Below are positions 1-58,752 of a DNA stretch of 58,752 bases, in pieces (position 1 is the first letter of the stretch; the number at the start of each line of letters is the position of its first letter). Source of the stretch: a virus; IMG/VR virus record IMGVR_UViG_3300045988_036009; one strand, written 5' to 3'. A program made the translations under genes and the position numbers. Below the pieces are notes generated by a model, which did not search any database, was not told the DNA's origin, and saw only the letters and a list, made by a program, of their open reading frames with translations.

Positions 1-46
1 TTCTTAGGATCCTCTTTAGGTTTGTCCTCTGGTTTCTTAGGATCCT
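1..46. repeat. Terminal overlap: nt 1-46 are identical to nt 58707-58752 (circular closure / assembly overlap)
   Basis: Both ends read ttcttaggatcctctttaggtttgtcctctggtttcttaggatcct. Collapsing the overlap joins the two adhesin fragments in frame (1073+362-46 = 1389 nt = 463 codons). Confidence 0.9.
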
Positions 47-125
47 CTTTAGGTTCCTCTTTAGGAGTTTCTTCCTTAGGTTTAGGATCTTCTTTTGGTT
101 TTTCCTCTGGTTTCTTATCCTCTAC
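1..125 (-). repeat. 33-bp coding tandem repeat (Pro/Lys/Glu/Asp-rich 11-codon units), left part, degenerating inward
   Basis: ttcttaggatcctctttaggtttgtcctctggt repeated from nt 1, followed by diverged copies. Encodes KPEDKPKEDPK-type wall-spanning linker of the adhesin. Confidence 0.8.
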
Positions 126-1073
126 CTTAGGTTTGTTTTCTCCATCGGCTTTACCGCTGCCGGTTACAAATTGATAAGGAACATCACGATATTGCGAATT
201 GAAGTTATCTGCACTAAGAACAACGCTATTCAAATAACGCTCAGCTTGTTTGATAACCTTTGTACGATAGCTAATATATAACTGATCTGAGAGTTTATCA
301 GCAGACCAAGTGAAACCATTAGTATGGAATACCGGAGCAATCTTAGTTGCTTCAGATTCTTTTTCTTTCCAAGGGTTATTCGATTCGACAGCCACCATTT
401 TAAAGGAATCTTTAACATATTCTTGGTTTTCGTCCCAAGTGTCAGCCACTTTGACATTGACAAGGTCTTTCTTAGCGTAGTTAACGCGCATTGCCCATAC
501 AATTTCGCCTGGATGTTCTGCGTCCTCGCCTCCCCATTTCATAAGAGTTTCATCTTTACCAATAACACCAGTTTTACCAGTAGTAGTTTCAACCTTACGT
601 CCATTAAAATCAAGAGCTACTTGTTGATTCTCAGAAACCTTTTCGACATTCCATTGAGTTTTGATATCAAGAGAGAATGTTTTATTTAGAGGGTGCGATT
701 CAAAGTAGTCATTGAATACAGTTGTAACTTCATTGTTATCTTTGTTTGCGGTGGCTGTACCAACTTCTGTTCCTTCGTTATTATTAACTGGGAATGTGTA
801 GTTGTTTACTAATTTGAGCTCTTGAGGCAATCCAACAGTAATGCTGTCACCTTTGTTGATTGAAATATCATCTGGGATTTGGATATCATTTACTTTGACA
901 TCTACGTCAGCGTAAATAGTATCATCAGATGTAGTTACTTCAACCGAAGGATTTTGTACACGGATCGTTGTATCATCTTTTGTTACTACAGTATCAGCTT
1001 CATTAGCCAATACGCTTGGTGCAGTCAAAAGGGCAAGTGCAATAGTTCCAGTAAATACGATAGATTTTTTCAT
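1..1073 (-). CDS. Secreted LPXTG-anchored Cna/MSCRAMM-like surface adhesin, N-terminal part (ORF runs off the left edge; C-terminal part is 58391..58752)
   Basis: ATG at 1073 preceded by AAAGGAGA. Own translation: MKKSIVFTGTIALALLTAPSVLA/NEADT (Sec signal peptide), then ...LMKWGGEDAEHPGEIVWAMRVNYAKKDLVNVKVADTWDENQEYVKDSF (collagen-binding Cna-A-type motif), then KPEDKPKEDPK repeats. The frame stays open to nt 1. Absent from the ORF track because it is not stop-bounded inside the window. Confidence 0.8.
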   Translation of the reverse strand, partial: MKKSIVFTGTIALALLTAPSVLANEADTVVTKDDTTIRVQNPSVEVTTSDDTIYADVDVKVNDIQIPDDISINKGDSITVGLPQELKLVNNYTFPVNNNEGTEVGTATANKDNNEVTTVFNDYFESHPLNKTFSLDIKTQWNVEKVSENQQVALDFNGRKVETTTGKTGVIGKDETLMKWGGEDAEHPGEIVWAMRVNYAKKDLVNVKVADTWDENQEYVKDSFKMVAVESNNPWKEKESEATKIAPVFHTNGFTWSADKLSDQLYISYRTKVIKQAERYLNSVVLSADNFNSQYRDVPYQFVTGSGKADGENKPKVEDKKPEEKPKEDPKPKEETPKEEPKEDPKKPEDKPKEDPK

Positions 1074-1086
1074 GATAGTTTCTCCT

Positions 1087-1587
1087 TTAATTTAAATAGT
1101 TCGGGTCAACTACTTCCCGAATCCAGCTCAAAGTGTCATGACCTTTATCGATTCGGTCATACACAGTATCCAATACGTCTAAAAAATAACGAACCTTATG
1201 TTCGTCAACAACAGCATCTTTATGATGATTAAACGGTTCGAAATGGATCCTTTCTCCAATGACACTCTCCATCTCATCATAATAAAATCCCTCCGCGAGA
1301 GATATAATTAACTCATCGACGATCTTTCTGACAACGAACCACAATAAGAGATTGATATCTAATATTTGTACATTCTTAGGTACTGTGAGTAATCCTGCAA
1401 TATAATTGCGATACTCAGAATCCAGACTAGTCCGTCGCCAATTTGTAATCAGTCGATCGATATACCAATCGTCGATGAAAAATAACTCTTTGAGAGGAAG
1501 TTTACGAATACTCGTAACAATATAGTCATCGAATTCTACCTTAGTCAATACCAGGGTAGATTTTCGACAACCCTCCCTTTCACGCAT
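1087..1587 (-). CDS. Hypothetical protein, tandem paralog of 1580..2065
   Basis: 166-aa ORF. The ATG overlaps the upstream stop and GGAGG lies upstream. Block ILDINLLLWFVVRKIVDELIISLAEGFYY matches VLDMDLYYLRVARRIVDNILLSMLETSYY of the neighbour. Confidence 0.7.
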   Translation of the reverse strand: MREREGCRKSTLVLTKVEFDDYIVTSIRKLPLKELFFIDDWYIDRLITNWRRTSLDSEYRNYIAGLLTVPKNVQILDINLLLWFVVRKIVDELIISLAEGFYYDEMESVIGERIHFEPFNHHKDAVVDEHKVRYFLDVLDTVYDRIDKGHDTLSWIREVVDPNYLN

Positions 1588-2407: not shown

Positions 2408-2439
2408 AAAAAAAAATGAAAGGGGCGGTAAACCCCTTT
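2408..2439 (-). terminator. Rho-independent terminator
   Basis: Minus strand reads AAAGGGG-TTTACCG-CCCCTTT followed by CATTTTTTTTT, 5 nt after the stop of 2445..2744. Confidence 0.75.
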
Positions 2440-18350: not shown

Positions 18351-19123
18351 TTAGGAGTTAGAGTTATTGTAGCTGGAGCAGTGCCCTTAGTGGCTGTGAA
18401 ATATACCCGGTTAGTCCGGAGATCATTTCCTGGCTCAAGTTTAAAGAACTCTTTCCCCACAGTATTGTTGTTTTTGTTTGTGATCGTGGATCCTGACTTA
18501 GAATATACAATGTATCGAGTACTATCAATGATGATTGTCTCATTTTGCATGTCCTTAATTGTCATAGCAGTGGATCCAATAGAAATTTTCAAGTTACCCG
18601 TAACACCAGAGAACTGTATTGTTGGTCTGGAGAAATATAGATTTGGATTATCAATCACTTCACCCGAAGTAACAACTCGAGGTTGATTGTCCACATTATA
18701 TTTAAACGGTTGACATTTTAGTTTCACTTTGAATGAAATACATCCTTGATAGAAGTATTTGTTTTCATAAGTGATTTCGGTCATGATAACTTTGTAAATA
18801 TGACTTTGATCAAAATATGGAATGAAGTCAATCCAGTTACCAACCCCATTGTTAAATAGAAAATTGATTCTATTACGGGCTAGTGAAATATCTCGATCTG
18901 AGTCATTATGACTTCGTCCGTCATAGAAACAGCTTAGCTCGAATTCGGTTGGCTCATAACCTTCATCGTCAAAAGCCAACTCTCCTTCGTAGCCATTTGG
19001 TGACTCGAAAGTCACACGTCGTTTAGGTGTTTCTATATCTGGGCGATCTTGGATAAATACATGATAATCTTCAGACTTGTATCCGTTGATCATGAAATAT
19101 CCAGGTTTTAAAGGCATCACCAT
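18332..19123 (-). CDS. Distal tail protein (Dit)
   Basis: 263 aa. The N-terminus ...FMINGYKSEDYHVFIQDRPDIETPKRRVTFESPNGYEGEL and its position between TMP and Tal fit the siphovirus tail-component family. Confidence 0.7.
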   Translation of the reverse strand: MVMPLKPGYFMINGYKSEDYHVFIQDRPDIETPKRRVTFESPNGYEGELAFDDEGYEPTEFELSCFYDGRSHNDSDRDISLARNRINFLFNNGVGNWIDFIPYFDQSHIYKVIMTEITYENKYFYQGCISFKVKLKCQPFKYNVDNQPRVVTSGEVIDNPNLYFSRPTIQFSGVTGNLKISIGSTAMTIKDMQNETIIIDSTRYIVYSKSGSTITNKNNNTVGKEFFKLEPGNDLRTNRVYFTATKGTAPATITLTPNWRVLV

Positions 19124-22100: not shown

Positions 22101-25100
22101 TATCAATGATACCTTTTGAGAATTCAACTATAACTTGAACTCCGGAATCGACTAATTTATGAGCATTTTGTGCTAGACCATCTAACAATGCGATAATCAT
22201 TTGTACTGTGGCAGCGATTATTCGAGGAATACCTTGAGCCAAACCTTCTACAAATTGAACGATCAACTCAATACCGGCTTTCATCAACCTAGGACCGGCT
22301 TGGACAAGTGATTCGACAAATACAAGTAGCCCTTGGACAATGTTTGCAAATGCCGCAGGAGCGGTTTCTGCCAAATTCTTAATTGCCATACTGAATGCCA
22401 AGAATCCGATACCAGCAATAGCGATTGATGATGCGGCCATAATTGAGGACGCACCGAATGACAGTAACGTCTTAGACAATATAGCCATACCTCTAGCGGT
22501 ACCTTGAGCTAATTTAGCGGCACCGATCAAGAGAATCAAGTGACCCGCCAATGCACCCAAACTGATACCCACAGCAATCAAGTTAAGAGATGCTAATAAT
22601 GCAATTGGAACTGCTAATGCCATCAGAGCAACAGATAGAATAAGTAATTTACCGGCATCACCGACGCTTACTTTTTCTAGACTCTTAGACATAATTACCA
22701 ATCCACCCATCGCAGCACCCATAGCCACTGTAGCAGCTAGGATACTTTGCCATGGATAGTTAGCAACTTTGGATAAGGCATTACCTATTGTGTTAACGGC
22801 ATTTGATAATGCGATGATCGCAGCAATATCTCCAGCACTAGCATCGACTTTAGTCATTACTTTGGAAATATAAACGAATCCCGCTAATACAACACCAATA
22901 GCCACAGTAGCGACCGTTAGACTTTGCCATGGCACTTTAGCTACCTTCTCCAAAGCATTACCAATGGATCCGAGCAATCTTGAGAATTGTTCAAATATAG
23001 CGGCAGTGGCCAAAGTTTGTTGGATACTACCAGACATTCCACTAACTTGTTTAGCGGCAAATCCTAAGGCCACAATAACTGCACCAACTCCAGCACAGGC
23101 TGCAGCCAAATTCTTCCATGGAATCGTGGACAGTTTCTGAATGGTTTTACCAATAGAGTATATTGCTAAGGTAAACGCCATCAGAGCGAACATCGACTTG
23201 TAATTAATTTTAATGGATTTCAATAAGTGAGCTACACCTATCAATTCAGCCATAATGGTTGTGATTGTGCCGAGTGCTAATAACACACCGTCCAGACTTA
23301 AAGTAGATAATCCTTCCACAGTCTTACCTAAGATAAATACTGAACCAGCAAATGCAATCATACTGAAAATAGATTTGGAATCTGTTTTTATGCCTTGTAG
23401 AGCGTTCATCACAATAAGCATTTCGCTTAGTAATATACTTATTGTACCGATTGCTAGTAATAACTCATCCCACTTGAATTTAGCCAACTTCTCAACAGAT
23501 AATGCTAAAATATAAACTGATCCAGCAAATGCTATCATAGACATTATCATTTTGTTTTCGAATTTGACGTTACCCATACGTTTCATCGAATGGGTCATAA
23601 CTTCCATCAGACCGCCAACGGAAGCTACTGCAGGAATCATTGTATCAATTGGTAACTTAGCTAATTTCTGAACAGCCAATACGAGGATTCGCACAGATAT
23701 AGCGAAACCAATCATTGACGCCAGAGTTCTACCACCAACAACTGTGCCATTAAGCTGTTTCATACAAAGAACTAAAGCTTCCATTAAGGCAGCAGTTCCT
23801 AGCAATCCTTGTATTGCTGCTTCTGGTTGTAATTTAGCAATTGCTTTGACAGACATTACTAAAATACGTAAAGATATAGCAAAACCAATCATTGAGGCTA
23901 ATGTACGTCCACCTACAACAGTTCCGTTGAGTTGTTTCATACATTGAACTAAGGCTTCCATTAAAGCCACCGTTCCTAATAATCCTTGAAGAGCTGATTC
24001 TGGTTGGAGTTTGGCAATAGCCTTAATAGACATTACTAAAATACGAAGAGAGATCGCGAAACCGATCATAGATGCCATTGTTCGTCCTCCAACAACAACG
24101 CCATTCATTTTCTTCATACATCTAGCAAGCTCTTCCATCAATGCTCCAGCTCCGACCATACCAATAACGGCACCCTCAGGATCTAGTTTAGCGATTGCGG
24201 AAACAGAGCTTACAATTATTCGCAATGCAATAGCAAAGCCAATCATTGCTGTGGCTCCGCCTTTATTGTAGCTTACTTTATCCAGTTCTTTCATGCTATC
24301 AGTCATTGTTCGCATCAAAGCACGAACTCCGACCATAGCGACACCGATCTCAGCTACACCCATGCCTTTTAGTTTGGCAAGGGCGCCCACAATAATACGC
24401 ATCGCAAATGCGAAGGCAATCATCTTGGTAATACCGGCTTTAGATGTTTTCTCAACCTCAGAAAGTCGTTTCATAGACTTAACTAGACCGTTCATGACGA
24501 ATCGAATACCAGCGACAGCAGTTACCATGCTATCCATATCCATACCTTCGAGCTTCTTGAGAGCTCCAGCAAGAATACGAATTGCAATAGCTATACCGAT
24601 TAGAGTGAACCCAGCACCTTTAGGAATTCCGTCAATCGCACCAAGTGTCTTGACTATCTTCATCATTCCGGCCATAGCTGCGCCCATAGCAATCATTGCT
24701 TTAGATAGATCTTTCATATCGATCTTAGACAATTTGTCTAACGATACGGCAAGCATCAAGCAGGCTACAGAAATACCAATAAGGAGACCGACTTTAATAC
24801 CTTTAGAAAAGTCGTTTAGAGCTCCTTTGAAATCATCTAATACCTTCTTAACGAGAGGTACAGACTCTTTACCTTTATCGAGGAATTTGTCAAACATTCC
24901 TTCAAAGCGGTCTAAGAATTTAGTAACTAGAGAGTTATCTCCAGATTTGAATTTAAGCCACTTATCAAATGCAAATAATCCAATTAAGGCTTGAATAATA
25001 TCTGCTCCATGGAATGACTTGAAAATATCTTTCAATAAGTCATAACCCTGTTTCGCCATGTTAGCGATACCAGAGAATACTGATTTGATAGTTCCACCAA

Positions 25101-27430: not shown

Positions 27431-27958
27431 TTACCATGAAGTGTTTGTTACATCCTTAATATGACGGCCTGCGTTTCTAGAGCTAGACATGCTAGCGTCT
27501 AGATCTCTTAATAAGTCATTAAGTTTTTGGTGTCTATCGGCGATGTTTGTAAACGCTCCCCTTTTAGTATTTCCTAGATTAGAAAAGCTGTTGTTAATAG
27601 ATGAAGAACTTACTTTCTTAGCTTTTCTTAAAGTGGAAACATTATTCTTTAGGCTTTCAGAATTTACGTTAAATCCTTTTTTATACCCAACGGTCTTATT
27701 AAGAGGACGGCTACCGCCACTTCCATCGAATAAAGATGCATAATGTGAAGATAGTTCACGTATTAGTTTGTTTCTTTTATAGCTGTTATATCCTTTATAC
27801 CCAGCATATGCAGCGGCACCAGCAAGAGCTATTCCTCCACCGATCATTGCAGCCTTCTTCAGTTTTTTCTGGGTAGATCTTCTAATTCCCCATTTCATTC
27901 CTTTGGTTCCAAAGTGTTGGATTACGTCATCGGAGTGAATAATAAACGAAGCATCCAT
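27431..27958 (-). CDS. Basic protein of the HxGxKGMKWG-motif family (member C) with one TM-like segment
   Basis: 175 aa. N-terminus MDASFIIHSDDVIQHFGTKGMKWGIRR, then AAMIGGGIALAGAAAYAGY and a Ser/Asn/Lys-rich tail. Confidence 0.75.
   Translation of the reverse strand: MDASFIIHSDDVIQHFGTKGMKWGIRRSTQKKLKKAAMIGGGIALAGAAAYAGYKGYNSYKRNKLIRELSSHYASLFDGSGGSRPLNKTVGYKKGFNVNSESLKNNVSTLRKAKKVSSSSINNSFSNLGNTKRGAFTNIADRHQKLNDLLRDLDASMSSSRNAGRHIKDVTNTSW
27888..27934 (-). repeat. 47-nt perfect direct repeat with 28670..28716
   Basis: ccccatttcattcctttggttccaaagtgttggattacgtcatcgga is identical at both sites. It encodes SDDVIQHFGTKGMKWG. Confidence 0.9.
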
Positions 27959-27973: not shown

Positions 27974-28333
27974 TTATTTTAGATAGTCTTTCAAGACTTT
28001 ATCGATTGCAGATTTGTAGGCCGAATCGATAGCTTTAATAATATATGGGTGTGGAGGAACATAGCCTCCCGTACCAGTTCCGTGACCATAGTGAATTATT
28101 ATAGCGATATTAACACCCTTATTAATATGAGTGTTAAATATCTCTAGTTCTTCACCACGACCAGTTTTGTTGATTTTATAACCCCACGAATTAGCTGTTT
28201 TACCAGATTTGTATGGAGTTGCGGCTTTTAGAGCCTCGACAATAGCTTTACCTAGTGCATCTAAAGAGACCCTTCGATCTCTCTTTAAATACTTTTCTAG
28301 ATTATTGAACGAACCGCTTGTTGTTATTCTCAT
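27974..28333 (-). CDS. HK97 gp10-like head-tail/tail-completion family protein
   Basis: 119 aa. ...ALKAATPYKSGKTANSWGYKI...IAIIIHYGHGTGTGGYVPPHPYIIKA matches the gp10-family pattern (TP..tG.l..sw ... yG ... PF/Y..A). Confidence 0.6.
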   Translation of the reverse strand: MRITTSGSFNNLEKYLKRDRRVSLDALGKAIVEALKAATPYKSGKTANSWGYKINKTGRGEELEIFNTHINKGVNIAIIIHYGHGTGTGGYVPPHPYIIKAIDSAYKSAIDKVLKDYLK

Positions 28334-28743
28334 TCACTTCGTTCCTTATAACTTTTCTTAAGATCTTTCTTAGCAGTCTTATATGCTTTCTTAAGAGCCT
28401 TATTACGTTTCTTGAACTTGTGTTTATACATATGACTGCCGTCCATAGATCTCATCGCAGCTTCGGCACCAATGCCCATTGCTCCGTATCGGGTCAATAA
28501 GTTGTTGCCTGTGAGAAGTCCACCATACATAGAAGCGATACTAGTTTTATAACCTAGTCGTCTCCAAAAATCGGGTTTCTTACCTTTGTATAGTTCTTTA
28601 GACTTTCTGAGTGATTGTTTGTAGTTCTTTTTAAGAGCATGCTTATCACTCATATAGTTTTTACGAACTCCCCATTTCATTCCTTTGGTTCCAAAGTGTT
28701 GGATTACGTCATCGGAATGAATTATAATGGTTGGATCGATCAT
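28330..28743 (-). CDS. Basic protein of the HxGxKGMKWG-motif family (member B)
   Basis: 137 aa. N-terminus MIDPTIIIHSDDVIQHFGTKGMKWGVRKN, with a Lys-rich remainder and a Gly-rich hydrophobic patch. Confidence 0.75.
   Translation of the reverse strand: MIDPTIIIHSDDVIQHFGTKGMKWGVRKNYMSDKHALKKNYKQSLRKSKELYKGKKPDFWRRLGYKTSIASMYGGLLTGNNLLTRYGAMGIGAEAAMRSMDGSHMYKHKFKKRNKALKKAYKTAKKDLKKSYKERSE
28670..28716 (-). repeat. 47-nt perfect direct repeat with 27888..27934
   Basis: Same 47-mer as at 27888..27934. The two copies bracket the gp10-like gene. Confidence 0.9.
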
Positions 28744-30781: not shown

Positions 30782-31097
30782 TATAAACTCCTCCTAAATC
30801 CACGATAACTCTAGGGGCTTTACCTACATCGAAACTTTCGACTTTCCATTTCACCCCTTGGTATTCCATATAAAGCAAATTCGAAATGTGCTTCATAAAG
30901 AATTGGTCAGCAACTAATGAAATTTGGTTGGTAATGCGGATATTGTCAATAGTAGATTTGTCGCCATTTTGATCGCGTCGGTATCTAGAACTGATCACAT
31001 CTCCGCGCACTCGTTTAACAACCAATTGTGGTTCATAAACATCTGGTTCGACTTCAACATCCTTTAATCGAAAACCAGCATTACCAAAGTATTTCAT
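30726..31097 (-). CDS. Head-tail connector / head-closure protein (by position)
   Basis: 123-aa ORF starting on the stop of the capsid gene. Confidence 0.5.
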   Translation of the reverse strand: MKYFGNAGFRLKDVEVEPDVYEPQLVVKRVRGDVISSRYRRDQNGDKSTIDNIRITNQISLVADQFFMKHISNLLYMEYQGVKWKVESFDVGKAPRVIVDLGGVYNEQENAYPGHSDESNSEV

Positions 31098-32995
31098 TAT
31101 CCACCTACTCGAGTAGCTTCTGTTCCGCTAGTTGCAGCATCTTCAGCACGAGCGCCTTTAGCTTTAGGTTTGAAGTAAACCGCAGCTTTAGCGCGAACAA
31201 GAGCACCTGAAAGACGAGTTTCAATCAAGTATTTCTGTTTGTTGTAGTCGATATCAAAGTGTTCGAATGTGTTAACTTCACCACCCTTGTTAGTACCGAT
31301 TTGGTAGTCAGCAAGGTTAACCATGATCATTTCGTCAGGTTTCAAGAAGTTAGTTTCAACGATTTCAGCAACACCAAACAATGAAGCAAGATATTCTTTA
31401 GTGGCAGGTTGTTGCCCACCGAATACCCATTGTTCGTTCTTGTTGCGGAGGAAACGAAGTTTAGTCAAGAACAAAGGATTCACGTAAAGTGATGGAGTTC
31501 CTGAACCAAGCATCTTAGTTTTCTCAGTTGCAACAGTTTCGAACAAGTCAAGAAGCATGTCTGGGTTGTAGTCAGCTTTGATTGTGTAGAAGTCTTCGTC
31601 CTTAGTAATAGGGCGGATCTTATCTTCTTTGATCTTAGCAGCGTCACCAGTAGCACGTCCGTCAGATACCAAGATTGCTTGCGCAATTTCGTCATTCAAC
31701 TTGATGCGCATTTCTTGGTTGAAGAATGCTGCAACGTTCAATTGTTGGCCGATATCGATAGCATCGTCACGGTCGATTGATTGTTTTTTATAGATCGTTT
31801 GAGGATCAGTTTTACGAGAAAGGAATGAAATGATTTGTTCTTTCTTTTCAGTTCCTTTGATGTAACCTTTAGCACGAAGTTGTTCGTCAGTAAGGTCAGA
31901 CAAGTCAGTCATGATAGACTTAACAAATGCTGTTGGCACTTTAGTTACACGAGACAAGATGTGTTCTGTCGCAGTGTTTGGTGAGTAGATTACTTGAACC
32001 CCACCTTGAAGTTGGTGATCCGGGAACAACTTGTCGATGTTGTTCATTGAGTGTTTAAGGACATCTCCACCATCAACTTCAGCAAGAATGTTACTTAGTT
32101 TGAGACCACGTTGTTGAGCAGTTTGCATTGCTTCTGTCAACGAATGACGGATCTCTTCGTTGTTGTTTGTGTTTTGTTCAAATGCGTTGTAGTGCATCAA
32201 AGTTCCTCCATTGTCAGATTGTTCGATTTCTTCATCGTCATCTTCTTCGTCAGCTTCTGCTGCGATTTCTTCAAGAATTTCGTCAACACGAGCATCAACT
32301 CGGTTATCGATTTCTTCGGCAATTGAAGCTTCATGTGCTTCGAGGGCGGCATTCGCTGCAGCTTCAGTCAAGATAGCTACTGCTTCTTGTTGATCTTCGT
32401 TCAAAGTTCCTAAAACTTCATCAAGAACTTCGCTCTCAGTTCCTTCGTCAGCGTGTTGGATACGGTCGAATAGACTTACACGATCATTACCAACCAAGAC
32501 GTCGCTCGCTGAGTGAATAAGTTCGTTACTTTCCATTAAAATAACTTCTCCTTCGTCTGGGTTCTCTGAGTGTTGTAACACTTCAGTGATGACTGCTCCA
32601 GGATTTGCTCCTGCAAGCACTAGCGATACTTCATAGATGTTACCATGAATTACATCATTTGCTGGAGTCCGCTTAATACGGTTAGCCCCAATAGACATAT
32701 GCATGATATCACCATGTTGTACAAGTTCCTTGGCGTTTTGGGCTTTTTGGGTATTATTGAAATATCCTCGGCCGTAAACACCTTCATCCGCATGTTGTAG
32801 CTCAACATGTCCAATGATGTTTTCTGGAGTGCTCGGGTCGTGTGACCAAACCAGAGGCACTCGCTTTCCATCATTTTCTTTGAAGGCTCCATGACGGATA
32901 GTGACACCGTCTGTACAACGCATGTCATTTCGGGTTACGTAACCCGCGAAATCATACTTAGGATGTTTTCCCATTATACGATTAACCTCCATCAA
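31097..32995 (-). CDS. Prohead protease (HK97/S78 family) fused to an acidic scaffold-like linker and an HK97-fold major capsid protein
   Basis: The N-terminal 150 aa (...DGVTIRHGAFKENDGKRVPLVWSHDPSTPENIIGHV...MSIGANRIKR) match the S78 protease pattern. aa 150-270 are acidic (DEEDDDEEIEQ). The C-terminal 350 aa (...FFNQEMRIKLNDEIAQAILVSDGR...KIKEDKIRPI...) are capsid-like. The start is ambiguous: TTG 32995, ATG 32992 or ATG 32974. Confidence 0.75.
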   Translation of the reverse strand: MMEVNRIMGKHPKYDFAGYVTRNDMRCTDGVTIRHGAFKENDGKRVPLVWSHDPSTPENIIGHVELQHADEGVYGRGYFNNTQKAQNAKELVQHGDIMHMSIGANRIKRTPANDVIHGNIYEVSLVLAGANPGAVITEVLQHSENPDEGEVILMESNELIHSASDVLVGNDRVSLFDRIQHADEGTESEVLDEVLGTLNEDQQEAVAILTEAAANAALEAHEASIAEEIDNRVDARVDEILEEIAAEADEEDDDEEIEQSDNGGTLMHYNAFEQNTNNNEEIRHSLTEAMQTAQQRGLKLSNILAEVDGGDVLKHSMNNIDKLFPDHQLQGGVQVIYSPNTATEHILSRVTKVPTAFVKSIMTDLSDLTDEQLRAKGYIKGTEKKEQIISFLSRKTDPQTIYKKQSIDRDDAIDIGQQLNVAAFFNQEMRIKLNDEIAQAILVSDGRATGDAAKIKEDKIRPITKDEDFYTIKADYNPDMLLDLFETVATEKTKMLGSGTPSLYVNPLFLTKLRFLRNKNEQWVFGGQQPATKEYLASLFGVAEIVETNFLKPDEMIMVNLADYQIGTNKGGEVNTFEHFDIDYNKQKYLIETRLSGALVRAKAAVYFKPKAKGARAEDAATSGTEATRVGG

Positions 32996-34337: not shown

Positions 34338-36068
34338 CTAAGCCGCGTATAGATCCATGTTGCGTTTAAACGCTACCCATGCGTCGATCAGTGCGGCTAC
34401 GTTATCGATCTTTTCATCAGATCTTCGTTTCGATAACTTGTAGTTACCGTTATTATCCTGAATAGCGACAGCATTACCCATCGCAAATTTCATTAGCTCT
34501 TCGTCAAATATTAATTGACGTTCCATAGCCAAGTTCTTCAACTCGCCCATAGGTACAGATTCTGTACGAGACCCTTGGATAATCTTTTCTACGCCATACT
34601 CACCGTTATCTCTAGACCAACGCTCAACAAATTCTCGAGCATTATATGGGTCGAAACCAAATGAGTAAACGACGTAGTTGTGTCTATAAATAAAGTTTGT
34701 TAGATCATCGTATACCTTATTCATATCTAATACAACGTCCGGCATGACAATAAGTGTACCTTCATCAATGAAAGTGTCATACTTATTGCGCATCGCAGAA
34801 GTCAATTTCTTAAGCTTAGACTCACATACATAAGATCTGGTCTTAACACCAAATCTACCACGGCCCAATGGGAATAAGAATGTAAATGCACAGAAGTCAT
34901 CACCTTGAGAAAGGTCTCCTCCCATTGCACATTCCAGTCCATCGAAGTTTTGAGGTCTATGAGGAATAGTCTCTTCGTAAACGAAGAAGTAAGTGTATCC
35001 CTCAACCGGTATTCCGAAACGTTTAGCCAGAGTATCAGCACGAGTTGATGGTTGAGTCTCTGCTCGTTCCACTTCTCGTCGATAAGTCTCGTAGCTAACA
35101 GTTGCTCCCAGGTTTGGATTGGCCTTAAGCCATGTTTCTGGGTGTGCTACCTCACGAACATCATCAAGTCTGTAGTACCAGATTGATACATGAGGGTTGA
35201 AATACCGACCTTCTAGTATGTCAGTTAGCTCCATTTTGATTGTATCACCAACACCGTCCCGGGCCGTACCTTCGGACGACGTGGCTATGATAAGGTAGTT
35301 GTCATTCTTAGATGCACCCTGTTCGATCGCGCCGATAACATTATCTCGAACTTCTCCGGATAGCCATTCGTCAACCGCTGCATACTTACAACGTAATCCT
35401 TGAAGTTTATCGACCGACATTGGGCGAATCTCTAACAAACTGTTTGTTGCGAAGTTCTCCACACCTTTCTTGGTTGATGCTAGCAACTGTTTCTGGGTAA
35501 GATTCCCAGTCATCTTAGATCCTTGGACCATATACCGAATCATTGGGCCTTTAGCTCGACTCAAAGCCGTTCTGAATGGACCCATAATTTCCTCGGCCTG
35601 TTTCATTGTAGGGGCACAGACGATTTGGTGTGTTGTAGCTGTATCTATCAGTAACATGTAAGCTTGCATGTACGTAGAATACATTGACTTCGCAGCTCCC
35701 CGTCCAACAATTAGAAATTGTTTATTGACAAGTCGCTTGAATTTTGATTTTATCTCCCATTTACCTAGTTTAGGATTGTAAACTTTGTCTTCTGAGACAT
35801 AAAACCATGCAAGGGCACATTCGGCCCAGAGTTTAAACGACGGCAGAAGAGTTACGTCACTACCGTCGGTGAGGGTCATTTCATTTTCGCAAAATCTTAC
35901 AAAGCCCTCAATCGCTTTACTATCATAGTAATAATCCGGCGACTCGATTAAGAAATCGATACGGTTCATTTCCAGTGATACCATCCGATTGACCGGAATT
36001 TCACCTCTAAGAACTTGCTCCTTAAACTTCATATACTCTTCCGGATATGCTTTGTTCGAAAGTACCAA
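34338..36068 (-). CDS. Terminase large subunit (Terminase_1-like)
   Basis: 576 aa, TTG start after AAGGGAG. Walker A FLIVGRGAAKSMY, N-terminus ...FVRFCENEMTLTDGS...LLPSFKLWAE typical of this family, plus a C-terminal nuclease-like half. Confidence 0.85.
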   Translation of the reverse strand: MVLSNKAYPEEYMKFKEQVLRGEIPVNRMVSLEMNRIDFLIESPDYYYDSKAIEGFVRFCENEMTLTDGSDVTLLPSFKLWAECALAWFYVSEDKVYNPKLGKWEIKSKFKRLVNKQFLIVGRGAAKSMYSTYMQAYMLLIDTATTHQIVCAPTMKQAEEIMGPFRTALSRAKGPMIRYMVQGSKMTGNLTQKQLLASTKKGVENFATNSLLEIRPMSVDKLQGLRCKYAAVDEWLSGEVRDNVIGAIEQGASKNDNYLIIATSSEGTARDGVGDTIKMELTDILEGRYFNPHVSIWYYRLDDVREVAHPETWLKANPNLGATVSYETYRREVERAETQPSTRADTLAKRFGIPVEGYTYFFVYEETIPHRPQNFDGLECAMGGDLSQGDDFCAFTFLFPLGRGRFGVKTRSYVCESKLKKLTSAMRNKYDTFIDEGTLIVMPDVVLDMNKVYDDLTNFIYRHNYVVYSFGFDPYNAREFVERWSRDNGEYGVEKIIQGSRTESVPMGELKNLAMERQLIFDEELMKFAMGNAVAIQDNNGNYKLSKRRSDEKIDNVAALIDAWVAFKRNMDLYAA

Positions 36069-36084
36069 AAATTAACTCCCTTAC

Positions 36085-36489
36085 TTAATTCTTCTTTTTA
36101 GATGCTGACCCAGCAACTGCATCGAAACCGGAGTTTACAGATTTCTTGACTACAGATCCTACCGCAGTACGGGCCATATCACGGAAGAAACTATCTTTAT
36201 TAGATGGTTTCATAGTAACTTGAGCATTACGTTTAATTTGTTCCGCGAAATCATTTTCCAATCTTAATCGTTCTGTTGCTCTACGTATGTCCTTATCGGT
36301 CATAGAAGCACGATTCTGATATTTCTTTTTCCACTTGGCAGTGGTTCTTGCAGAGTTTTTGGCTCTTCGTCGAGCCCGAACATTAGATGCTCGGTTCTTT
36401 CTAAAACCCCACTTCATGCCTTTGATACCAAAGTGTTCGATAAAATCGGAAGAAGAATCTACTGAAACCAACTCATTCTGGTTTTGCAT
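36085..36489 (-). CDS. Basic protein of the HxGxKGMKWG-motif family (member A)
   Basis: 134 aa. ...SSSDFIEHFGIKGMKWGFRKNR followed by an Arg/Lys-rich segment (RARRRAKNSARTTAKWKKKYQNR). Confidence 0.75.
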   Translation of the reverse strand: MQNQNELVSVDSSSDFIEHFGIKGMKWGFRKNRASNVRARRRAKNSARTTAKWKKKYQNRASMTDKDIRRATERLRLENDFAEQIKRNAQVTMKPSNKDSFFRDMARTAVGSVVKKSVNSGFDAVAGSASKKKN

Positions 36490-38909: not shown

Positions 38910-41522
38910 CTATGATAGATCCTGTACAGTAGACACACTGATACCTAGTGCATCAGCTACTTCTGCATAGGTGTGACCGTTCTTAAGCATGGTCTTAGCA
39001 CGACTAGCAGTAGATAGGCTAATAGACTTCTCTGTACGTGGTGTAGCTAGCTGCTTAACACGATCACTATCAGCGAATCGTAGTACATCAGTTAGCATCT
39101 TACTAGAGACAGCCCCAGATTGAATAGCTTTCCACTCATCATCGTCAATAGAGATGCGTGTAGACTTACCATCAGCACCAGTCTTAACACGGGCTGCTGC
39201 AATAGCCTGTTGTTTAAGCTTCTTGAGCTGGTCTTTGCTCATGTCAGGAGTACGTTTTTCAGCAATAGTCTTGTTAGCCATGAGCTGAGCTTGACGTTCT
39301 CTAGGAGAGTTGTACAAAGCGTCGTTAAGCTTCTTCTGTAGAGACTCAACTTGTGTCTTGTACTTGACTTTAGCATCCTTAGACATGGTCATGTTAGGCG
39401 TCTTGCTAATGATAGACTCACCTTTTGTACGCATCTTACCAAGAGCATTAATGTAATTACCATACATGTTCTCAATAGCTGTACCAGAACCTAGTTTCTT
39501 AGCATCATCTACCATATCAACAATAGGTGTAAATGAAATGGTTTTAGTTTTCTTGATCTTAGGAGCTAATCTAGGATTAGCAGCTAGTTCTTCAGCAGTT
39601 CTTTCCTTATACCAATGCTCGGTCTCACGATAGTCGGTCTTCGATCTAGAAATAAGAGTTGATGCTCCGCTGGATATCTTTCCTGTTACAACATCATAGT
39701 GTTCTTGATATTTCTTTTTAAGCTGGTCTATATTATTCTCTCTTTCAGAACGTTTATAATCCAAGCTATGTTTTTCAGCATCAATAACAACCATTGAATG
39801 TTTAACAGCTCTAGCAATTTCAGATTGAGATGCGCCTTTAAGAGTCATATCAGTAATAAGATTCGATACAACTCCCATTTGTTTTTGCGTATCAATCTTC
39901 GGTGGCTTAGGAGTATAATAACTTTTCGAATCGAAGTTCTTTAATTCTTTTAAAGAACGACTAGTTTTAATTCCATTATTGTTGTTAGGAATAACCATAA
40001 CTGAGTCACCATCGAAATCAGCACCAGATAATTTAGATGCTACAGATGAATCAATACCGATTGCATCCTTTGCACCCTTCATAAATTTAGCCGGGCCTTT
40101 ATCAAGTTTATTATTAACAGTTAATTCTGGTAACTCGAAAATACCACCATGAGGATAACGAACAAGTACAACCTTTTCTCCATTCTTAAAGTTAGGAGCA
40201 TATACTTCATTAGCTTTAATACCAGATAAAGGTAATAATACTTGTCCTTTCATTCTGTCAAACCCAACCATTTTAAGATGTTGTCGTTTAACAGTGAGGC
40301 CATCAACAAAATCCTGCATCATAACTTTCTTGACTACTGGATTTGTTAAGGCATTGATCTCTTCAAACTCTTTCTTTAATTTATCGTATGTCTTTTCGAT
40401 ACGACCTTTAACCAAAGCTGGTGGTTGTTTAGATAAGAATTGTGAAGATAATGTTTTCGACCAAGAATTCCAATCGCCTTCCTCATTAACTTTATTAATA
40501 GCTCCAGCTTGTTTCTTGATCGTTGCACCAAATGGATTATCCGGATCATCTTTTAAAGGTTTGAGAACTTTTTCTTTAGGAGTTCCTTGTTTCTTGTTGG
40601 TGTTGAAAATAACATCGACACCTTTAGGGAAGTCTTTTGGATCTCCATAAATAGCCATACCTTTTAAATAATGAGTTCCGTTTACACCGATACGAACCTG
40701 AGCATATCTGGATTTACCTAAGTCCAAGTCTTTTACTCCTGGACGTAATTCCATTACACCATCTTTATCCGTACCGCCTTGCTCGTCATATCGAATACCT
40801 ACACGTTTCCAATCAATATGTTGAATAGGTTTCAATCCCAGTGAGGATTTACCTTCAGCATCTGTATGAATATGAGGAGGTGTGATTTCATGCTTGTGTT
40901 CCCTAACAACAGCAGGGTCTGCTTCTTTAGTTAACACTTTCATTTCAACCCAGTGATCATCATTTGTAGCATTCTTAACATATACTGTATGCCTGTGATA
41001 TCCTTCGGATTCCAATTGTTGTACAGCACGTTTAAGAGTACTTTCATTCACACCAAGTTGTTGTGCAGAACCTAAACCAACGTCAAGATATGGATTCTTT
41101 TCAATAAGACCTTTAATATCAGTCTTAATTTGTTCCATGCGATTTACATTGTTACGTACTTTCGCATCTAAATTCATACGAACAGTTGATTCAGGAATAC
41201 CCGTTCTACGAGATATCTCAATAGATCCTAAACCTTGATCGGCGAGCTCTTGAATTCGACTAATATTGTATAATCGAATTTCATGCTTAGCAATATTATT
41301 CCGTTTACGGAATTCAGTAGTTGTAATACCGAGCTTCATAGCAATTTGCGTATCAGATAATCCTGATCGCCTGTATTTAACAACTCTGTCGGACCATGAA
41401 GTAGCCCGCTGAAATGAATTCTCGCCAGATCCCCAAGCATATCGTCCACTATGTGGAATACTACCTTGGTGCGGGGTTCCTCTATGTTCGAGCATATCAC
41501 TATATGCTTCTTCCAAGTTCAT
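38910..41522 (-). CDS. Candidate single-subunit two-barrel RNA polymerase (YonO-like) with N- and C-terminal HTH modules
   Basis: 870 aa. aa 499-512 SGADFDGDSVMVIPN (nt 40005..40019 encode DFDGD) resemble the beta-prime loop NADFDGDQMAVH. aa about 455-475 KVVLVRYPHGGIFELPELTV resemble beta-prime LLNRAPTLHRLGIQAFEP. HTH-like segments: LSDTQIAMKLGITTTEFRKR, GSIEISRRTGIPESTVRMNL, LGVNESTLKRAVQQLESEG and C-terminal HTYAEVADALGISVSTVQDLS. Confidence 0.55.
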   Translation of the reverse strand: MNLEEAYSDMLEHRGTPHQGSIPHSGRYAWGSGENSFQRATSWSDRVVKYRRSGLSDTQIAMKLGITTTEFRKRNNIAKHEIRLYNISRIQELADQGLGSIEISRRTGIPESTVRMNLDAKVRNNVNRMEQIKTDIKGLIEKNPYLDVGLGSAQQLGVNESTLKRAVQQLESEGYHRHTVYVKNATNDDHWVEMKVLTKEADPAVVREHKHEITPPHIHTDAEGKSSLGLKPIQHIDWKRVGIRYDEQGGTDKDGVMELRPGVKDLDLGKSRYAQVRIGVNGTHYLKGMAIYGDPKDFPKGVDVIFNTNKKQGTPKEKVLKPLKDDPDNPFGATIKKQAGAINKVNEEGDWNSWSKTLSSQFLSKQPPALVKGRIEKTYDKLKKEFEEINALTNPVVKKVMMQDFVDGLTVKRQHLKMVGFDRMKGQVLLPLSGIKANEVYAPNFKNGEKVVLVRYPHGGIFELPELTVNNKLDKGPAKFMKGAKDAIGIDSSVASKLSGADFDGDSVMVIPNNNNGIKTSRSLKELKNFDSKSYYTPKPPKIDTQKQMGVVSNLITDMTLKGASQSEIARAVKHSMVVIDAEKHSLDYKRSERENNIDQLKKKYQEHYDVVTGKISSGASTLISRSKTDYRETEHWYKERTAEELAANPRLAPKIKKTKTISFTPIVDMVDDAKKLGSGTAIENMYGNYINALGKMRTKGESIISKTPNMTMSKDAKVKYKTQVESLQKKLNDALYNSPRERQAQLMANKTIAEKRTPDMSKDQLKKLKQQAIAAARVKTGADGKSTRISIDDDEWKAIQSGAVSSKMLTDVLRFADSDRVKQLATPRTEKSISLSTASRAKTMLKNGHTYAEVADALGISVSTVQDLS

Positions 41523-55353: not shown

Positions 55354-55609
55354 AAAGTTCCTCCATTAGCTTATCGACTGCGCTATCGATAGCCTTCTTT
55401 CTTTTACAACTAAATGTGAATTCAGGAATATCGTAAAACGGATAAACCTTGAATCCATCAGTAACTCTGAATATGTATTCGTGTCCGTCAACAGATATAG
55501 TATAAATACTATTATCCTCAGACAATGAGATATTATCTACGTCATGGAATGTATCGATGTACATGTTATCCATTAGTAATATAACATTAAGTTTTACTTC
55601 TACTTTCAT
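55343..55609 (-). CDS. Hypothetical protein
   Basis: 88-aa ORF with GGAGG RBS. Confidence 0.6.
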   Translation of the reverse strand: MKVEVKLNVILLMDNMYIDTFHDVDNISLSEDNSIYTISVDGHEYIFRVTDGFKVYPFYDIPEFTFSCKRKKAIDSAVDKLMEELYAT

Positions 55610-55787
55610 AAGCAGCCTCCAATACTAGTGCAGCTATTGTCAGCTCAAATAAGAAGAACACTCCACAAATAACCCACACTAATGTCCATGCTTCAAATGC
55701 TTTAAACCAAATGAATGCGTAAAACAAGAAGATATGAGTTAACATAATGGGTATGGAAAGTAGTAATGCTTTTAAAAACTTTACCAT
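55587..55787 (-). CDS. Small two-TM membrane protein
   Basis: 66 aa, almost entirely hydrophobic (LLLSIPIMLTHIFLFYAFIWF...TLVWVICGVFFLFELTIAALVL). Confidence 0.55.
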   Translation of the reverse strand: MVKFLKALLLSIPIMLTHIFLFYAFIWFKAFEAWTLVWVICGVFFLFELTIAALVLEAAYESRSKT

Positions 55788-57458: not shown

Positions 57459-57644
57459 TTATTTACTAGCGCTATCTTTAGCCATGTATCCCCACATGAA
57501 CAATAGAATGCCCTGAATAGAGCCTGTGAAACATACGGCAAATCGTGGATCGAGTTCGAAAAATACAATAAACATTGTATAAATCATCGCGCTCAACAAT
57601 GCTCCAATAACTGCCAACATAACGGCTCCAGCTAAAACTCTCAT
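57459..57644 (-). CDS. Small two-TM membrane protein
   Basis: 61 aa, AAAGGAGAA RBS. MRVLAGAVMLAVIGALLSAMIYTMFIVFF...GILLFMWGYM. Confidence 0.6.
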   Translation of the reverse strand: MRVLAGAVMLAVIGALLSAMIYTMFIVFFELDPRFAVCFTGSIQGILLFMWGYMAKDSASK

Positions 57645-57672
57645 TCGCTAGATTCTCCTTTCTTTTTAAAAC

Positions 57673-57707
57673 AAAAAAAGAATGAGGAGTGTGTAAACCC
57701 CTCATTC
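57673..57707 (-). terminator. Rho-independent terminator
   Basis: Minus strand reads GAATGAGG-GGTTTACACACT-CCTCATTC followed by TTTTTTTG, 10 nt after the stop of 57718..58023. Confidence 0.75.
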
Positions 57708-57717
57708 AGTGAAACTT

Positions 57718-58023
57718 TTAGTCTTTGTCATCGAATGTTTCGAAGTCTCCTTCAATAACATCATCTTCGTCCTGCTGTTTCGATGCGTTGTAGATAGCGC
57801 AGACAACTGATCCAATAGCAACTCCTGTTAGGAATCGTAGTGCTGGTTTGCGGTATTTAGCGATGAAATCAGCGGTCTTTTCACCAAATGATTTCTTCAC
57901 CTCAATACTCTCAATTTTCACTTCGGGTTCCTTTTCGGTAGCTACTTCTGTAACTTCGTCCTTTACTTCCTCAACTGTATCAACAACAGTTTCCTCGATT
58001 TGTTTTGAAACTTCTTTTGACAT
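57718..58023 (-). CDS. Acidic protein with C-terminal TM segment; first gene after cassette P8
   Basis: 101 aa, AAAGGAGGA RBS. Glu/Val-rich N-half, TM segment LRFLTGVAIGSVVCAIY. Confidence 0.65.
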   Translation of the reverse strand: MSKEVSKQIEETVVDTVEEVKDEVTEVATEKEPEVKIESIEVKKSFGEKTADFIAKYRKPALRFLTGVAIGSVVCAIYNASKQQDEDDVIEGDFETFDDKD

Positions 58024-58076: not shown

Positions 58077-58391
58077 TTATTGATCAAGTCGACTCAAATA
58101 TTCGATTCGTTCTTGAATCATTTCCGCATTGGACATAGCATTAATAAGATCATTTGCGATCTGAACTGGATTCGCTTGTACGAATTTATTCGTGATTTCC
58201 TCAATGTCTTCACTAACGCCATTATTTAATTTCATTTCACGCCAGTTAACCAAAATATATGTTATTACTGCTCGCTCAATAGGATCAAGATCAGCAAACA
58301 TATAATCATACACCATTGATTTAAATAATGATGTTAAATTTAAATCTTGTGGCGCATTCAGAATTTCAGGATCTTTAACCCAGCTTCTCAT
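58077..58391 (-). CDS. Hypothetical protein
   Basis: 104-aa ORF. Its ATG shares one base with the adhesin stop codon (TAATG). Confidence 0.65.
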   Translation of the reverse strand: MRSWVKDPEILNAPQDLNLTSLFKSMVYDYMFADLDPIERAVITYILVNWREMKLNNGVSEDIEEITNKFVQANPVQIANDLINAMSNAEMIQERIEYLSRLDQ

Positions 58392-58752
58392 TATTTAGTC
58401 TCCTTGCGTTTGATAACAACAGCAGCAGATGCCAAGAATACACCAGTAGTAATAAGAGCAAGCTCTAGGCTAGATCCAGTATTTGGCAAAGTATGAGTTT
58501 CAACTTGTTTGGTTGCTTCAATTACTTTAGCCGGGATATTACGCACAACAGGTTTCTTTTCTTCGTATTTACGAATAACAACTTGTTTAGGTGCAGGTGG
58601 TGTTTGAGGTTTAGGAGTTTCCTTAGGCTTATCTGCTGGTTTCTTAGGATCCTCTTTAGGCTTGTCTTCTGGCTTCTTAGGATCCTCTTTAGGTTTTTCC
58701 TCTGGTTTCTTAGGATCCTCTTTAGGTTTGTCCTCTGGTTTCTTAGGATCCT
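58391..58752 (-). CDS. LPXTG adhesin, C-terminal part (continues from 1..1073 across the window junction)
   Basis: Own translation ...KPEDKPKEDPKKPEEKPKEDPKKPEDKPKEDPKKPADKPKETPKPQTPPAPKQVVIRKYEEKKPVVRNIPAKVIEATKQVETHTLPNTGSSLELALITTGVFLASAAVVIKRKETK*. It has LPNTG (58475..58489), a hydrophobic helix and a basic tail, which together make a sortase sorting signal. Stop at 58391..58393. Confidence 0.85.
   Translation of the reverse strand, partial: DPKKPEDKPKEDPKKPEEKPKEDPKKPEDKPKEDPKKPADKPKETPKPQTPPAPKQVVIRKYEEKKPVVRNIPAKVIEATKQVETHTLPNTGSSLELALITTGVFLASAAVVIKRKETK
58641..58752 (-). repeat. 33-bp coding tandem repeat, right part (3.4 units; continues at nt 1)
   Basis: Units start at 58641, 58674, 58707 and 58740 (ttcttaggatcctctttagg(c/t)tt(g/t)t(c/t)(t/c)tctgg(c/t)). 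Confidence 0.85.

Follow-up and report, generated by a model that had tools for sequence, protein, structure and literature searches.

Collagen-binding MSCRAMMs (microbial surface components recognising adhesive matrix molecules), such as Cna of Staphylococcus aureus (2f68/2f6a), Ace of Enterococcus faecalis (2z1p), Cnm of Streptococcus mutans (8jl8) and RspB of Erysipelothrix rhusiopathiae (3v10), are built from a signal peptide, an A-region with Big_8 and Collagen_bind subdomains and an LPXTG anchor. A second group is formed by the fibrinogen-type Clf/Sdr MSCRAMMs (ClfA 2vr3, SdrG 1r17, SdrE 5wtb, Bbp 5cfa). When surface proteins are carried by phages, they are usually discussed as lysogenic-conversion cargo. 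For example, the prophage-borne LPXTG protein SasX has been implicated in transmission and colonisation, and SasX/SesI, located on a phiSPbeta-like prophage in methicillin-resistant S. aureus (MRSA) ST239 and in S. epidermidis, is a phage-carried sortase substrate that changes the host surface and colonisation (PMC7047976). The present analysis concerns an adhesin gene in IMG/VR virus record IMGVR_UViG_3300045988_036009, a stretch of 58,752 nucleotides (the window, which denotes this whole stretch) that represents a siphovirus of ~58.7 kb from the human mouth. This gene encodes a complete sortase substrate in a phage without lysogeny genes. No sequence or fold relationship to SasX/SesI was detected, and the latter is a prophage conversion gene expressed in lysogens, unlike the gene of this integrase-less phage.

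The adhesin gene is intact, under selection and phage-borne, and, as read from the sequence, it has every feature of a sortase-anchored MSCRAMM; its architecture, fold, phage context, purifying selection and presence/absence polymorphism were each demonstrated directly. The coding sequence (CDS) lies on the minus strand, running from the ATG at 1073..1071 to base 1 and resuming at 58752 up to the stop codon TAA at 58393..58391. Its parts are the following:

1..1073, minus strand: 5' part of the adhesin CDS (codons 1-357 plus 2 nt), with the ATG at 1073..1071 and the Pfam domains
1005..1073, minus strand: Sec-type signal peptide, aa 1-23 (MKK, hydrophobic core, then VLA before the cut and N after it), read from the sequence and conserved in 120 homologues
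624..887, minus strand: Big_8, first immunoglobulin G (IgG)-like subdomain of the A-region, aa 63-150 (Pfam PF17961, 3.5e-13, above gathering score; SdrE/Bbp alignment)
192..551, minus strand: Collagen_bind, second IgG-like subdomain, aa 175-294 (Pfam PF05737, 2e-13, above gathering score)
1..128, minus strand: 33-bp (11-residue) Pro/Lys/Glu/Asp repeat stalk, proximal half
58604..58752, minus strand: 33-bp repeat stalk, distal half, with the contig break inside the array
58490..58603, minus strand: non-repetitive Pro-rich segment TPPAPKQVVIRKYEEKKPVVRNIPAKVIEATKQVETHT, conserved across the lineage
58475..58489, minus strand: LPNTG sortase motif, present as LPNTG in 120/120 close homologues
58412-58474, minus strand: hydrophobic segment SSLELALITTGVFLASAAVVI of 21 residues, from the sequence
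58394-58411, minus strand: charged tail KRKETK, from the sequence
58391..58752, minus strand: 3' part of the adhesin CDS including TAA 58391..58393, joined to base 1 via the terminal overlap (13 nt preferred, 46 nt also in frame)

The signal peptide (MKKSIVFTGTIALALLTAPSVLA) has a hydrophobic core of 17 residues, and inspection of its sequence revealed neither a lipobox nor a YSIRK motif. Within Big_8, VTTVFNDYFE is the counterpart of the MSCRAMM TYTFTDYVD motif and aligns to ITYTFTDYVDK of SdrE and Bbp, while the collagen-binding signature KWGGEDAEHPGEIVWAMRVNYAKK was located and its coordinates were verified. A candidate isopeptide triad is made up of K179 (537-539), D211 (441-443) and N282 (228-230), which show no variation across 61 sequences, reach 93-96% conservation in 46 diverse ones and align to the YKTGD / IKD / VNNS positions of Cna and the corresponding residues of Ace; the Cna triad we take to be K176/D209/N293, with a Lys-Asn bond in the Collagen_bind subdomain. 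The stalk is ~120 residues long, and its array has a 33-bp period with 4.8 copies and 95% matches (Tandem Repeats Finder, TRF, on an identical independent contig). The Pro-rich segment is presumed to span the wall. All three parts of the sorting signal (LPNTG, hydrophobic segment and basic tail) are retained in 120/120 close homologues. Thus, the Sec signal peptide, the domain with a Cna A-type signature, the 11-residue repeat linker and the sorting signal ending in KRKETK, all proposed from the sequence in an earlier reading of this DNA (the original prediction), were recovered at verified positions. Among the Pfam families it suggested searching, Collagen_bind was found, together with Big_8; Cna_B has no match in the adhesin, the stalk being the 33-bp Pro/Lys/Glu repeat, and Gram_pos_anchor stayed below its cut-off. 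Across homologues (P0090-P0096 and others), the stalk is exchanged wholesale between two unrelated Pro-rich types, PKEDPKKPEDK 11-mers and a PEPTFEIP... type (PEPTFEIPKESP...VLDKPYLPIEDIP), with the A-domain and anchor remaining 93-99% identical; at the stalk position, NCBIfam SIALI-17 repeats are present in the prophage relatives P0416 and P0121.

With respect to the fold, a single-sequence phmmer search of the adhesin against PDB gave no match and a family profile was required. The profile, built from 46 diverse relatives, matches Ace (2z1p, 1e-14), SdrE, Bbp, Cna (2f68, 8e-12), SdrG, ClfB and RspB. An AlphaFold2 (AF2) model of residues 24-318, with a mean predicted local distance difference test (pLDDT) value of 90.4, is all-beta with two domains, and its top 50 PDB matches in Foldseek are nearly all MSCRAMM A-regions (E 5e-17 to 2e-11), the best of them at template-modelling (TM) scores of ~0.6-0.66. 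ClfA ranks first (5e-17), followed by SdrE, SdrG, RspB, Cnm, Cna and Ace. An N-terminal domain without an adhesin-type fold, which the original prediction had named as a ground for abandoning its reading, is contradicted by this model, and the bacterial cell-wall surface protein architecture that it proposed is upheld by the domains, the profile homology to Ace/Cna/SdrE and the AF2 model. Judged by sequence and modelled structure, the protein is a member of the MSCRAMM class, with a signal peptide, two IgG-like subdomains, the motif and the sorting signal all present. Lacking a Cna_B stalk, it falls outside the narrowly defined Cna subfamily, which leaves its membership of the MSCRAMM class unaffected.

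Compared with Cna, Ace, Cnm and RspB, the phage protein scores Foldseek E 2.6e-15 to 1.9e-13 and TM 0.59-0.66 at an identity of only ~15-20%; unlike these, it is phage-encoded and has a Pro/Lys/Glu 11-mer array in place of Cna_B repeats. The Clf/Sdr proteins are the best structural matches (E 5e-17 to 1e-15) and share the TYTFTDYVD-like motif (as VTTVFNDYFE) and a two-domain layout compatible with dock-lock-latch binding. Nevertheless, the phage protein lacks their Ser-Asp repeat region and N1 domain, and its second domain is Pfam Collagen_bind rather than the SdrG_C_C type. Among viral models in BFVD, one is similar and is named 'Clumping factor [Siphoviridae sp.]'. Searches of PHROGs, PADLOC and NCBIfam with the adhesin and its neighbours returned nothing usable, PHROGs having no family for the adhesin.

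The contig is closed into a circle by the adhesin open reading frame (ORF). Two exact overlaps of the window ends, of 46 nt and 13 nt, exist because the contig break falls within the 33-bp tandem repeat; both are in frame and yield 462 aa and 473 aa, respectively, and the 13-nt join gives a circle of ~58,739 bp. The junction is crossed by two independent contigs, L021 (4285 nt) and L022 (3118 nt, human oral metagenome), which fit the 13-nt join at 99.97-99.98% identity without a gap, whereas the 46-nt join requires one 33-nt gap. Furthermore, translation across the 13-nt join gives exactly the database protein P0001 (473 aa). A length of 473 aa, one 11-residue repeat beyond 462, is therefore most likely from the sequence. 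The original prediction was right about the junction and the reading frame, while its figure of 462 aa probably needs correction to 473 aa; its worry that the contig ends might not be joined is answered by L021 and L022, which span the junction at up to 99.98%. In more than 100 related assemblies of 56-59 kb, the intact gene lies mid-contig with the same neighbours, and these assemblies hold mid-contig members of more than 100 clusters of 79-99% identical proteins; hence, the join is biological and not an artefact. As a separate observation, L037 (IMGVR_UViG_3300045988_049810) carries at ~10666-11514 a 282-aa in-frame deletion variant without the end of the A-domain and the stalk, with signal peptide and LPNTG retained, which is either a decaying copy or a mis-assembly.

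The surroundings of the adhesin comprise the following features:

2419..2439, minus strand: terminator-like hairpin and T-run, directly upstream of g71-g72-g73-adhesin
1087..1587, minus strand: g73, 166 aa, function not assigned, conserved left border of the cassette slot
1082..1088, minus strand: Shine-Dalgarno sequence AAAGGAG, 8 nt upstream of the adhesin ATG and overlapping the stop of the upstream gene
58077..58391, minus strand: g2, 104 aa, the downstream gene, whose ATG overlaps the adhesin stop
58023-57718, minus strand: g3, with one transmembrane segment, 3' of g2
57680..57707, minus strand: terminator-like hairpin (11-bp stem and T7) after g3, closing the six-gene block with the adhesin
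57644-57459, minus strand: 61-aa membrane protein, 3' of g3

A search of IMG/VR seeded with g73 recovered 47 loci of the lineage, 14 of which (14/47) contain the adhesin. The boundaries of presence and absence coincide exactly with ORF boundaries, and the order of the slot is constant: g73, the cassette or nothing, a g2-like gene, a g3-like gene (one transmembrane segment), the 61-aa membrane protein and g5. Among the loci without the adhesin, the same ribosome-binding site (RBS) directly precedes the g2 homologue in L023 and L028, and a 49-aa ORF is found there instead in L030. The description of the adhesin as a fixed phage gene in the original prediction must therefore give way to that of an accessory cassette. 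It is an optional gene between conserved phage genes, as expected of a moron; however, a promoter and terminator of its own, of the moron type, were not found.

The A-domain has a ratio of nonsynonymous to synonymous substitution rates (dN/dS) of 0.034 at dS 0.35, compared with 0.06 for the endolysin, 0.07 for g73, 0.15 for g12 and 0.37 for g3. It is thus under strong purifying selection, at a level of constraint matching that of the endolysin. To the copies in two sub-lineages, where the flanking genes reach only 63-75% nucleotide identity, the A-domain is 88-89% (nt) and 95-96% (aa) identical. The same pattern is seen only in the lysin and g53, indicating that the history of the cassette follows the host-interaction genes and not its neighbours.

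The adhesin is part of a six-gene block between two terminator-like hairpins. The 13-nt gap upstream leaves no space for a promoter of its own, and at its end the sequence TAATG places the g2 ATG (58391..58389) on the last base of the adhesin TAA, the shared base that had been noticed in the original prediction. This gap, the stop/ATG overlap, the hairpin-bounded block, the gene order and the position of the temperate-phage homologues suggest that the adhesin is expressed during productive infection together with the early block of small genes, which separates the lysis module from the replication module. A further hairpin, a strong one (7638-7622), follows the lysis genes. The gene call g4 (57705-57478) was discarded as spurious since it overlaps the terminator hairpin, the real gene there being 57644-57459. 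Small predicted membrane proteins are encoded 3' of the adhesin (57459-58023 and 55587-55787, both minus strand), namely g3, the 61-aa hydrophobic protein and a very hydrophobic 66-aa protein; a g3 homologue and a small membrane protein are conserved nearly lineage-wide, with the adhesin present or not. An 18-nt gene-boundary sequence, CAAGGAGACTAAATAATG, occurs identically at 58386-58403 and 2060-2077 (both minus strand), one copy comprising the last adhesin codons, the RBS and the ATG of g2 and the other preceding g72; such a short homology might be used in the exchange of cassettes.

All plausible genes of the phage are on the minus strand, in agreement with the single coding strand described earlier. 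PHROGs and Pfam identify a terminase, a portal, a protease-capsid fusion, a tape-measure protein, a Tal-like protein of 1676 aa and a fibre containing a collagen-like stretch, as well as an Amidase_5 endolysin, a DNA polymerase/primase, a helicase, an exonuclease, a single-stranded DNA (ssDNA)-annealing protein and an 870-aa protein resembling RNA-dependent RNA polymerase (RdRP) and helix-turn-helix (HTH) proteins. The adhesin is thus embedded in a phage genome rather than in flanking host DNA, as had been proposed, given the phage genes around it and the junction-crossing contigs. Among the non-structural genes, neither PHROGs nor Pfam found an integrase, repressor, partition gene or sortase, which agrees with the earlier statement on integrase and repressor, and a tRNA scan of the genome found none. 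Adhesin contigs of this lineage stop at ~60 kb, apart from two of ~2x genome length, while the homologues of temperate relatives are found on contigs of up to 2.3 Mb (chromosomal). A non-integrating lifestyle is supported by these contig sizes and the missing lysogeny genes, although such negative evidence falls short of proof. A 113,754-bp scaffold was considered as an integrated prophage and set aside; it amounts to ~1.94 genome lengths, ends inside phage genes and is read as a concatemer or scaffolded pair.

GenBank contains a single close relative, Caudovirus D_HF5_2C, which comes from human saliva and has a terminase of 91% aa identity; it is syntenic and without the adhesin, and its authors predicted a Bacillota host (PMC10537320). 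A megablast of the adhesin locus against GenBank phages gave no match. The host is probably a Streptococcus of the mitis/parasanguinis group, judging from an endolysin that shares 58-60% identity with Streptococcus phage lysins along its whole length, a fibre head that matches only phages of S. parasanguinis, S. mitis, S. infantis and S. pneumoniae, and a genome GC content of 39.5%. The bin names 'Granulicatella adiacens' and 'Solobacterium sp.' were also considered as host evidence and are outweighed by the Streptococcus-only lysin and fibre-head matches. A scan of species-representative genomes, which reaches close relatives only, gave a single match on a phage-sized contig of a metagenome-assembled genome (MAG), with no prophage and no isolate host. 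The fibre is g52, an 848-aa tail fibre (9871-12417, minus strand) with 19 uninterrupted G-X-Y triplets (Pfam Collagen, aa 459-515, ~10873-11043); its C-terminal head is 41-49% identical over substantial matches to 'tail fiber' genes of S. parasanguinis, S. mitis, S. infantis and S. pneumoniae prophages. In Javan371 and Javan311, the gene matching the fibre head is located beyond the lysin.

At E <= 1e-3, 319 clusters (50% identity) match the adhesin; seven of the ten nearest are phage-sized or labelled Caudoviricetes, and the members looked up, P0121 (59% identity, the nearest prophage copy) and P0416 (42%, S. salivarius chromosome), lie in integrated prophages. Temperate Streptococcus phages commonly carry homologues of 31-60% identity, for which an annotation as LPXTG proteins already exists, and this tempers the surprise that the original prediction attached to the gene. 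These include Ssal_phage00024 of YMC-2011, gp23 of SA-TP2, Javan535_0035, the 'WapA precursor' of Javan371 and Javan311_0032, as well as the 'SIALI-17 repeat-containing surface protein' of NCBI, which belong to the same A-region family (35-44% identical) and have the same architecture and early/replication gene position. They differ in that their phages possess an integrase and a repressor, neither of which was found here, and in their SIALI-17/PEPT-type stalks. In Javan535, SA-TP2, YMC-2011, Javan371, Javan311, CJLB-5 and the P0121/P0416 prophages, the homologue is always on the lytic strand, after the switch/anti-repressor/excisionase genes and beside or inside the replication genes; within this set it was never found in the lysogeny module or at the usual cargo site beyond the lysin. 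In the literature, no functional study of any phage-borne member of the family was found. The novelty lies in finding the gene in a phage that has no lysogeny genes, in putting numbers on its selection and its behaviour as a cassette, and in an early-operon position that stays constant from one phage type to another. One homologue (34% identity) is the LPXTG adhesin of L082 (MW057932.1, 'Campylobacter phage CJLB-5'), whose siphovirus lysogeny/replication layout is like that of the examined streptococcal prophages; its Campylobacter host label is questionable.

Based on established sortase biology, the adhesin would be made in the infected cell and exported by the Sec pathway with cleavage of the signal peptide after Ala23, and the hydrophobic segment and KRKETK tail would retain it in the membrane. 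The housekeeping sortase of the host (sortase A) would then cleave LPNTG between T and G and link the protein to peptidoglycan, so that the stalk of ~120 Pro/Lys/Glu-rich residues could carry the two-domain IgG-like A-region past the wall, where it may bind its ligand in the dock-lock-latch or 'hug' manner of Cna, Ace and SdrG. The role is the least certain step. Altered adhesion is favoured, whereby the infected cell would be kept on a host-derived or biofilm ligand and the burst would occur where new hosts are dense, and not in swallowed saliva. This preference follows from what is known of the fold, whose members, where characterised, act as adhesins and bind animal matrix or plasma proteins, and the extreme conservation of the A-domain suggests an invariant ligand. 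For the whole statement, altered adhesion or retention of the infected cell, our analysis leaves the chances about evenly balanced.

Several points weigh against this account. A cell that lyses within about an hour gains little from an adhesin, unless retention in the biofilm matters, and early expression fits exclusion of other phages at least as well. The gene is absent from 33/47 relatives and is therefore dispensable for the lytic cycle. The Pfam name 'Collagen_bind' is not proof of collagen binding, and the Gram_pos_anchor hidden Markov model (HMM) scores 16.2 bits, below the cut-off of 20. In the promoter scan, sigma-70-like matches were at chance level, no commoner than in shuffled sequence. 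In addition, the label 'virulent' derives from negative evidence only, and the host is deduced, two assemblies having binned the phage with Granulicatella and Solobacterium.

The main rival to retention, which we regard as somewhat unlikely, is superinfection exclusion (Sie) or receptor shielding: the anchored A-region would coat the infected cell, directly or via salivary/serum proteins, thereby blocking further adsorption and sparing the loss of progeny on debris. The adhesin would then be a Gram-positive LPXTG counterpart of T5 Llp or TP-J34 Ltp. These two lipoproteins, of coliphage T5 and S. thermophilus phage TP-J34, and the lactococcal Sie2009 are phage-encoded, envelope-anchored and made early or from a prophage. 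The analogy with them is possibly functional and nothing further, as they are small, anchored by a lipid or membrane segment, without an IgG-like adhesin fold and without homology to the adhesin (PADLOC/PHROGs negative). To our knowledge, every exclusion protein described from Gram-positive systems is either a small membrane protein or a lipoprotein, which counts against exclusion, as does the absence of homology to any known exclusion or defence protein when the adhesin and its neighbours were searched in PADLOC and PHROGs; the latter makes a known Sie protein less likely and does not lower the chance that the adhesin acts as one. Its position among early-type small genes, beside small membrane proteins, and that of its temperate-phage homologues, always in the early lytic-direction operon and not at the usual toxin/moron site, agree with exclusion. 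So does the evolutionary depth that the adhesin shares with the fibre/lysis module and not with its neighbours, although its very low dN/dS is unlike that of an arms-race gene. The same fibre-head type is present in 10/10 adhesin-plus loci with a fibre head in range, plus the window, vs 1/9 adhesin-minus loci; this association is real and fits exclusion, but it is confounded by shared ancestry and has an exception in L030 (same fibre head, without adhesin). A documented analogue is the protection from phage A25 in serum by the LPXTG-anchored M protein, which blocks adsorption by binding human serum proteins (bioRxiv 10.1101/2024.02.07.579182).

Distinctly less probable is a colonisation factor of the conversion type, for which the phage would have to persist (carrier state, pseudolysogeny or an unrecognised episomal prophage) so that the adhesin benefits surviving hosts like SasX in staphylococci. 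This precedent, the 31-60% identical relatives in true prophages of S. salivarius, S. mitis, S. parasanguinis and S. sanguinis, and the phage-sized contigs deposited under bacterial names (Granulicatella adiacens, Solobacterium sp.) are in its favour. Nevertheless, no integrase, repressor, partition or plasmid-replication gene was detected in the phage, which has its own DNA polymerase/primase, helicase and RNA-polymerase-like gene with all genes on one strand; the adhesin lacks its own promoter or terminator, and the species-representative scan, limited to close relatives, yielded just the one phage-sized MAG contig. We consider it very unlikely that the ligand of the A-region is the collagen-like triple helix in fibre g52 of the same phage, with sister phages being trapped or progeny tethered. 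The Pfam Collagen repeat of g52 (aa 459-515, 19 G-X-Y triplets) makes such binding conceivable, and a collagen-like fibre is found in 11/11 readable adhesin-plus genomes (7/7 in the G-X-Y scan, the window and three Pfam Collagen loci) and in only 1/6 adhesin-minus genomes. However, phylogeny confounds this association inside the lineage, the fibre of L028 is collagen-like in the absence of an adhesin, and tethering of progeny would be costly to the phage. Among independent temperate carriers of the homologue, a G-X-Y run occurs in only 3/6 (SA-TP2, YMC-2011 and CJLB-5, and not Javan535, Javan371 or Javan311); binding of the fibre was thus rejected as a general rule and kept as a low-probability rival. 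Least credible of all, and close to dismissal, is an artefact, i.e., a chimeric join of unrelated contig ends, contamination with host DNA or a decaying pseudogene. The contig break inside a tandem repeat, with two possible overlaps and different lengths, and the internally deleted 282-aa version in the relative L037 could be taken that way; against them stand the independent contigs spanning the junction at 99.98% identity, the intact mid-contig gene in more than 100 assemblies, the dN/dS of 0.034 and the sorting signal retained in 120/120 close homologues.

A broader proposal, possible though doubtful in our estimate, is that the adhesin and its relatives make up a sortase-anchored, MSCRAMM-like clade that is specific to phages, belongs to the early operons of temperate as well as integrase-less Streptococcus phages and acts in lytic growth. 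Its members would be the first LPXTG-type factor to re-surface a cell that is about to lyse, either shutting out competing phages (directly or via salivary proteins) or pinning the cell in the oral biofilm until burst. The cassette is exchanged between diverged sub-lineages, and in many oral streptococcal phages its relatives are found at the same place in the early operon. If it does act in productive infection, the adhesive surface of oral streptococci would be reshaped by phages within a single infection, with relevance to plaque ecology and competition between phages. It would also matter for the anti-streptococcal use of such phages, which would carry an MSCRAMM-type adhesin.

Apart from the adhesin, the genome holds several features of its own. 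The packaging and replication genes (window 34338-36068, minus strand, and genome-wide) resemble those of actinobacteriophages, the terminase being 63% identical to that of Rhodococcus/Gordonia phages. Modules thus appear to be shared across phyla, with actinobacteriophage-like packaging and replication alongside a streptococcal lysin, fibre head and GC content. The 870-aa protein (38910-41522, minus strand) combines a weak RdRP match (PF05183) with several HTH/sigma-region-4-like segments (phrog_4291) and may represent a single-subunit RNA polymerase of the YonO type; among cultured phages, those of Arthrobacter, Streptomyces and Gordonia have its closest relatives (~44%), annotated only as HTH protein. 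Five small paralogues with an N-terminal H[FY]GxKGMKW motif (Pfam DUF7211) are scattered over the head, tail and lysis regions:

36085-36489, minus strand: DUF7211 paralogue
28330-28743, minus strand: DUF7211 paralogue
27431-27958, minus strand: DUF7211 paralogue
8933-9334, minus strand: DUF7211 paralogue
7645-8184, minus strand: DUF7211 paralogue

The tape-measure protein (19117-27417, minus strand) has 2766 aa, which is very long for a genome of ~58.7 kb; that of D_HF5_2C has ~2480 aa and is 45% identical over the aligned part (~1,450 residues). Lastly, most of the single 632-aa ORF at 31097-32995 (minus strand) matches a head-maturation protease, and its C-terminus matches a major head protein; it resembles a fusion of protease and capsid, with a parallel in D_HF5_2C ('capsid protein', 1896 nt).

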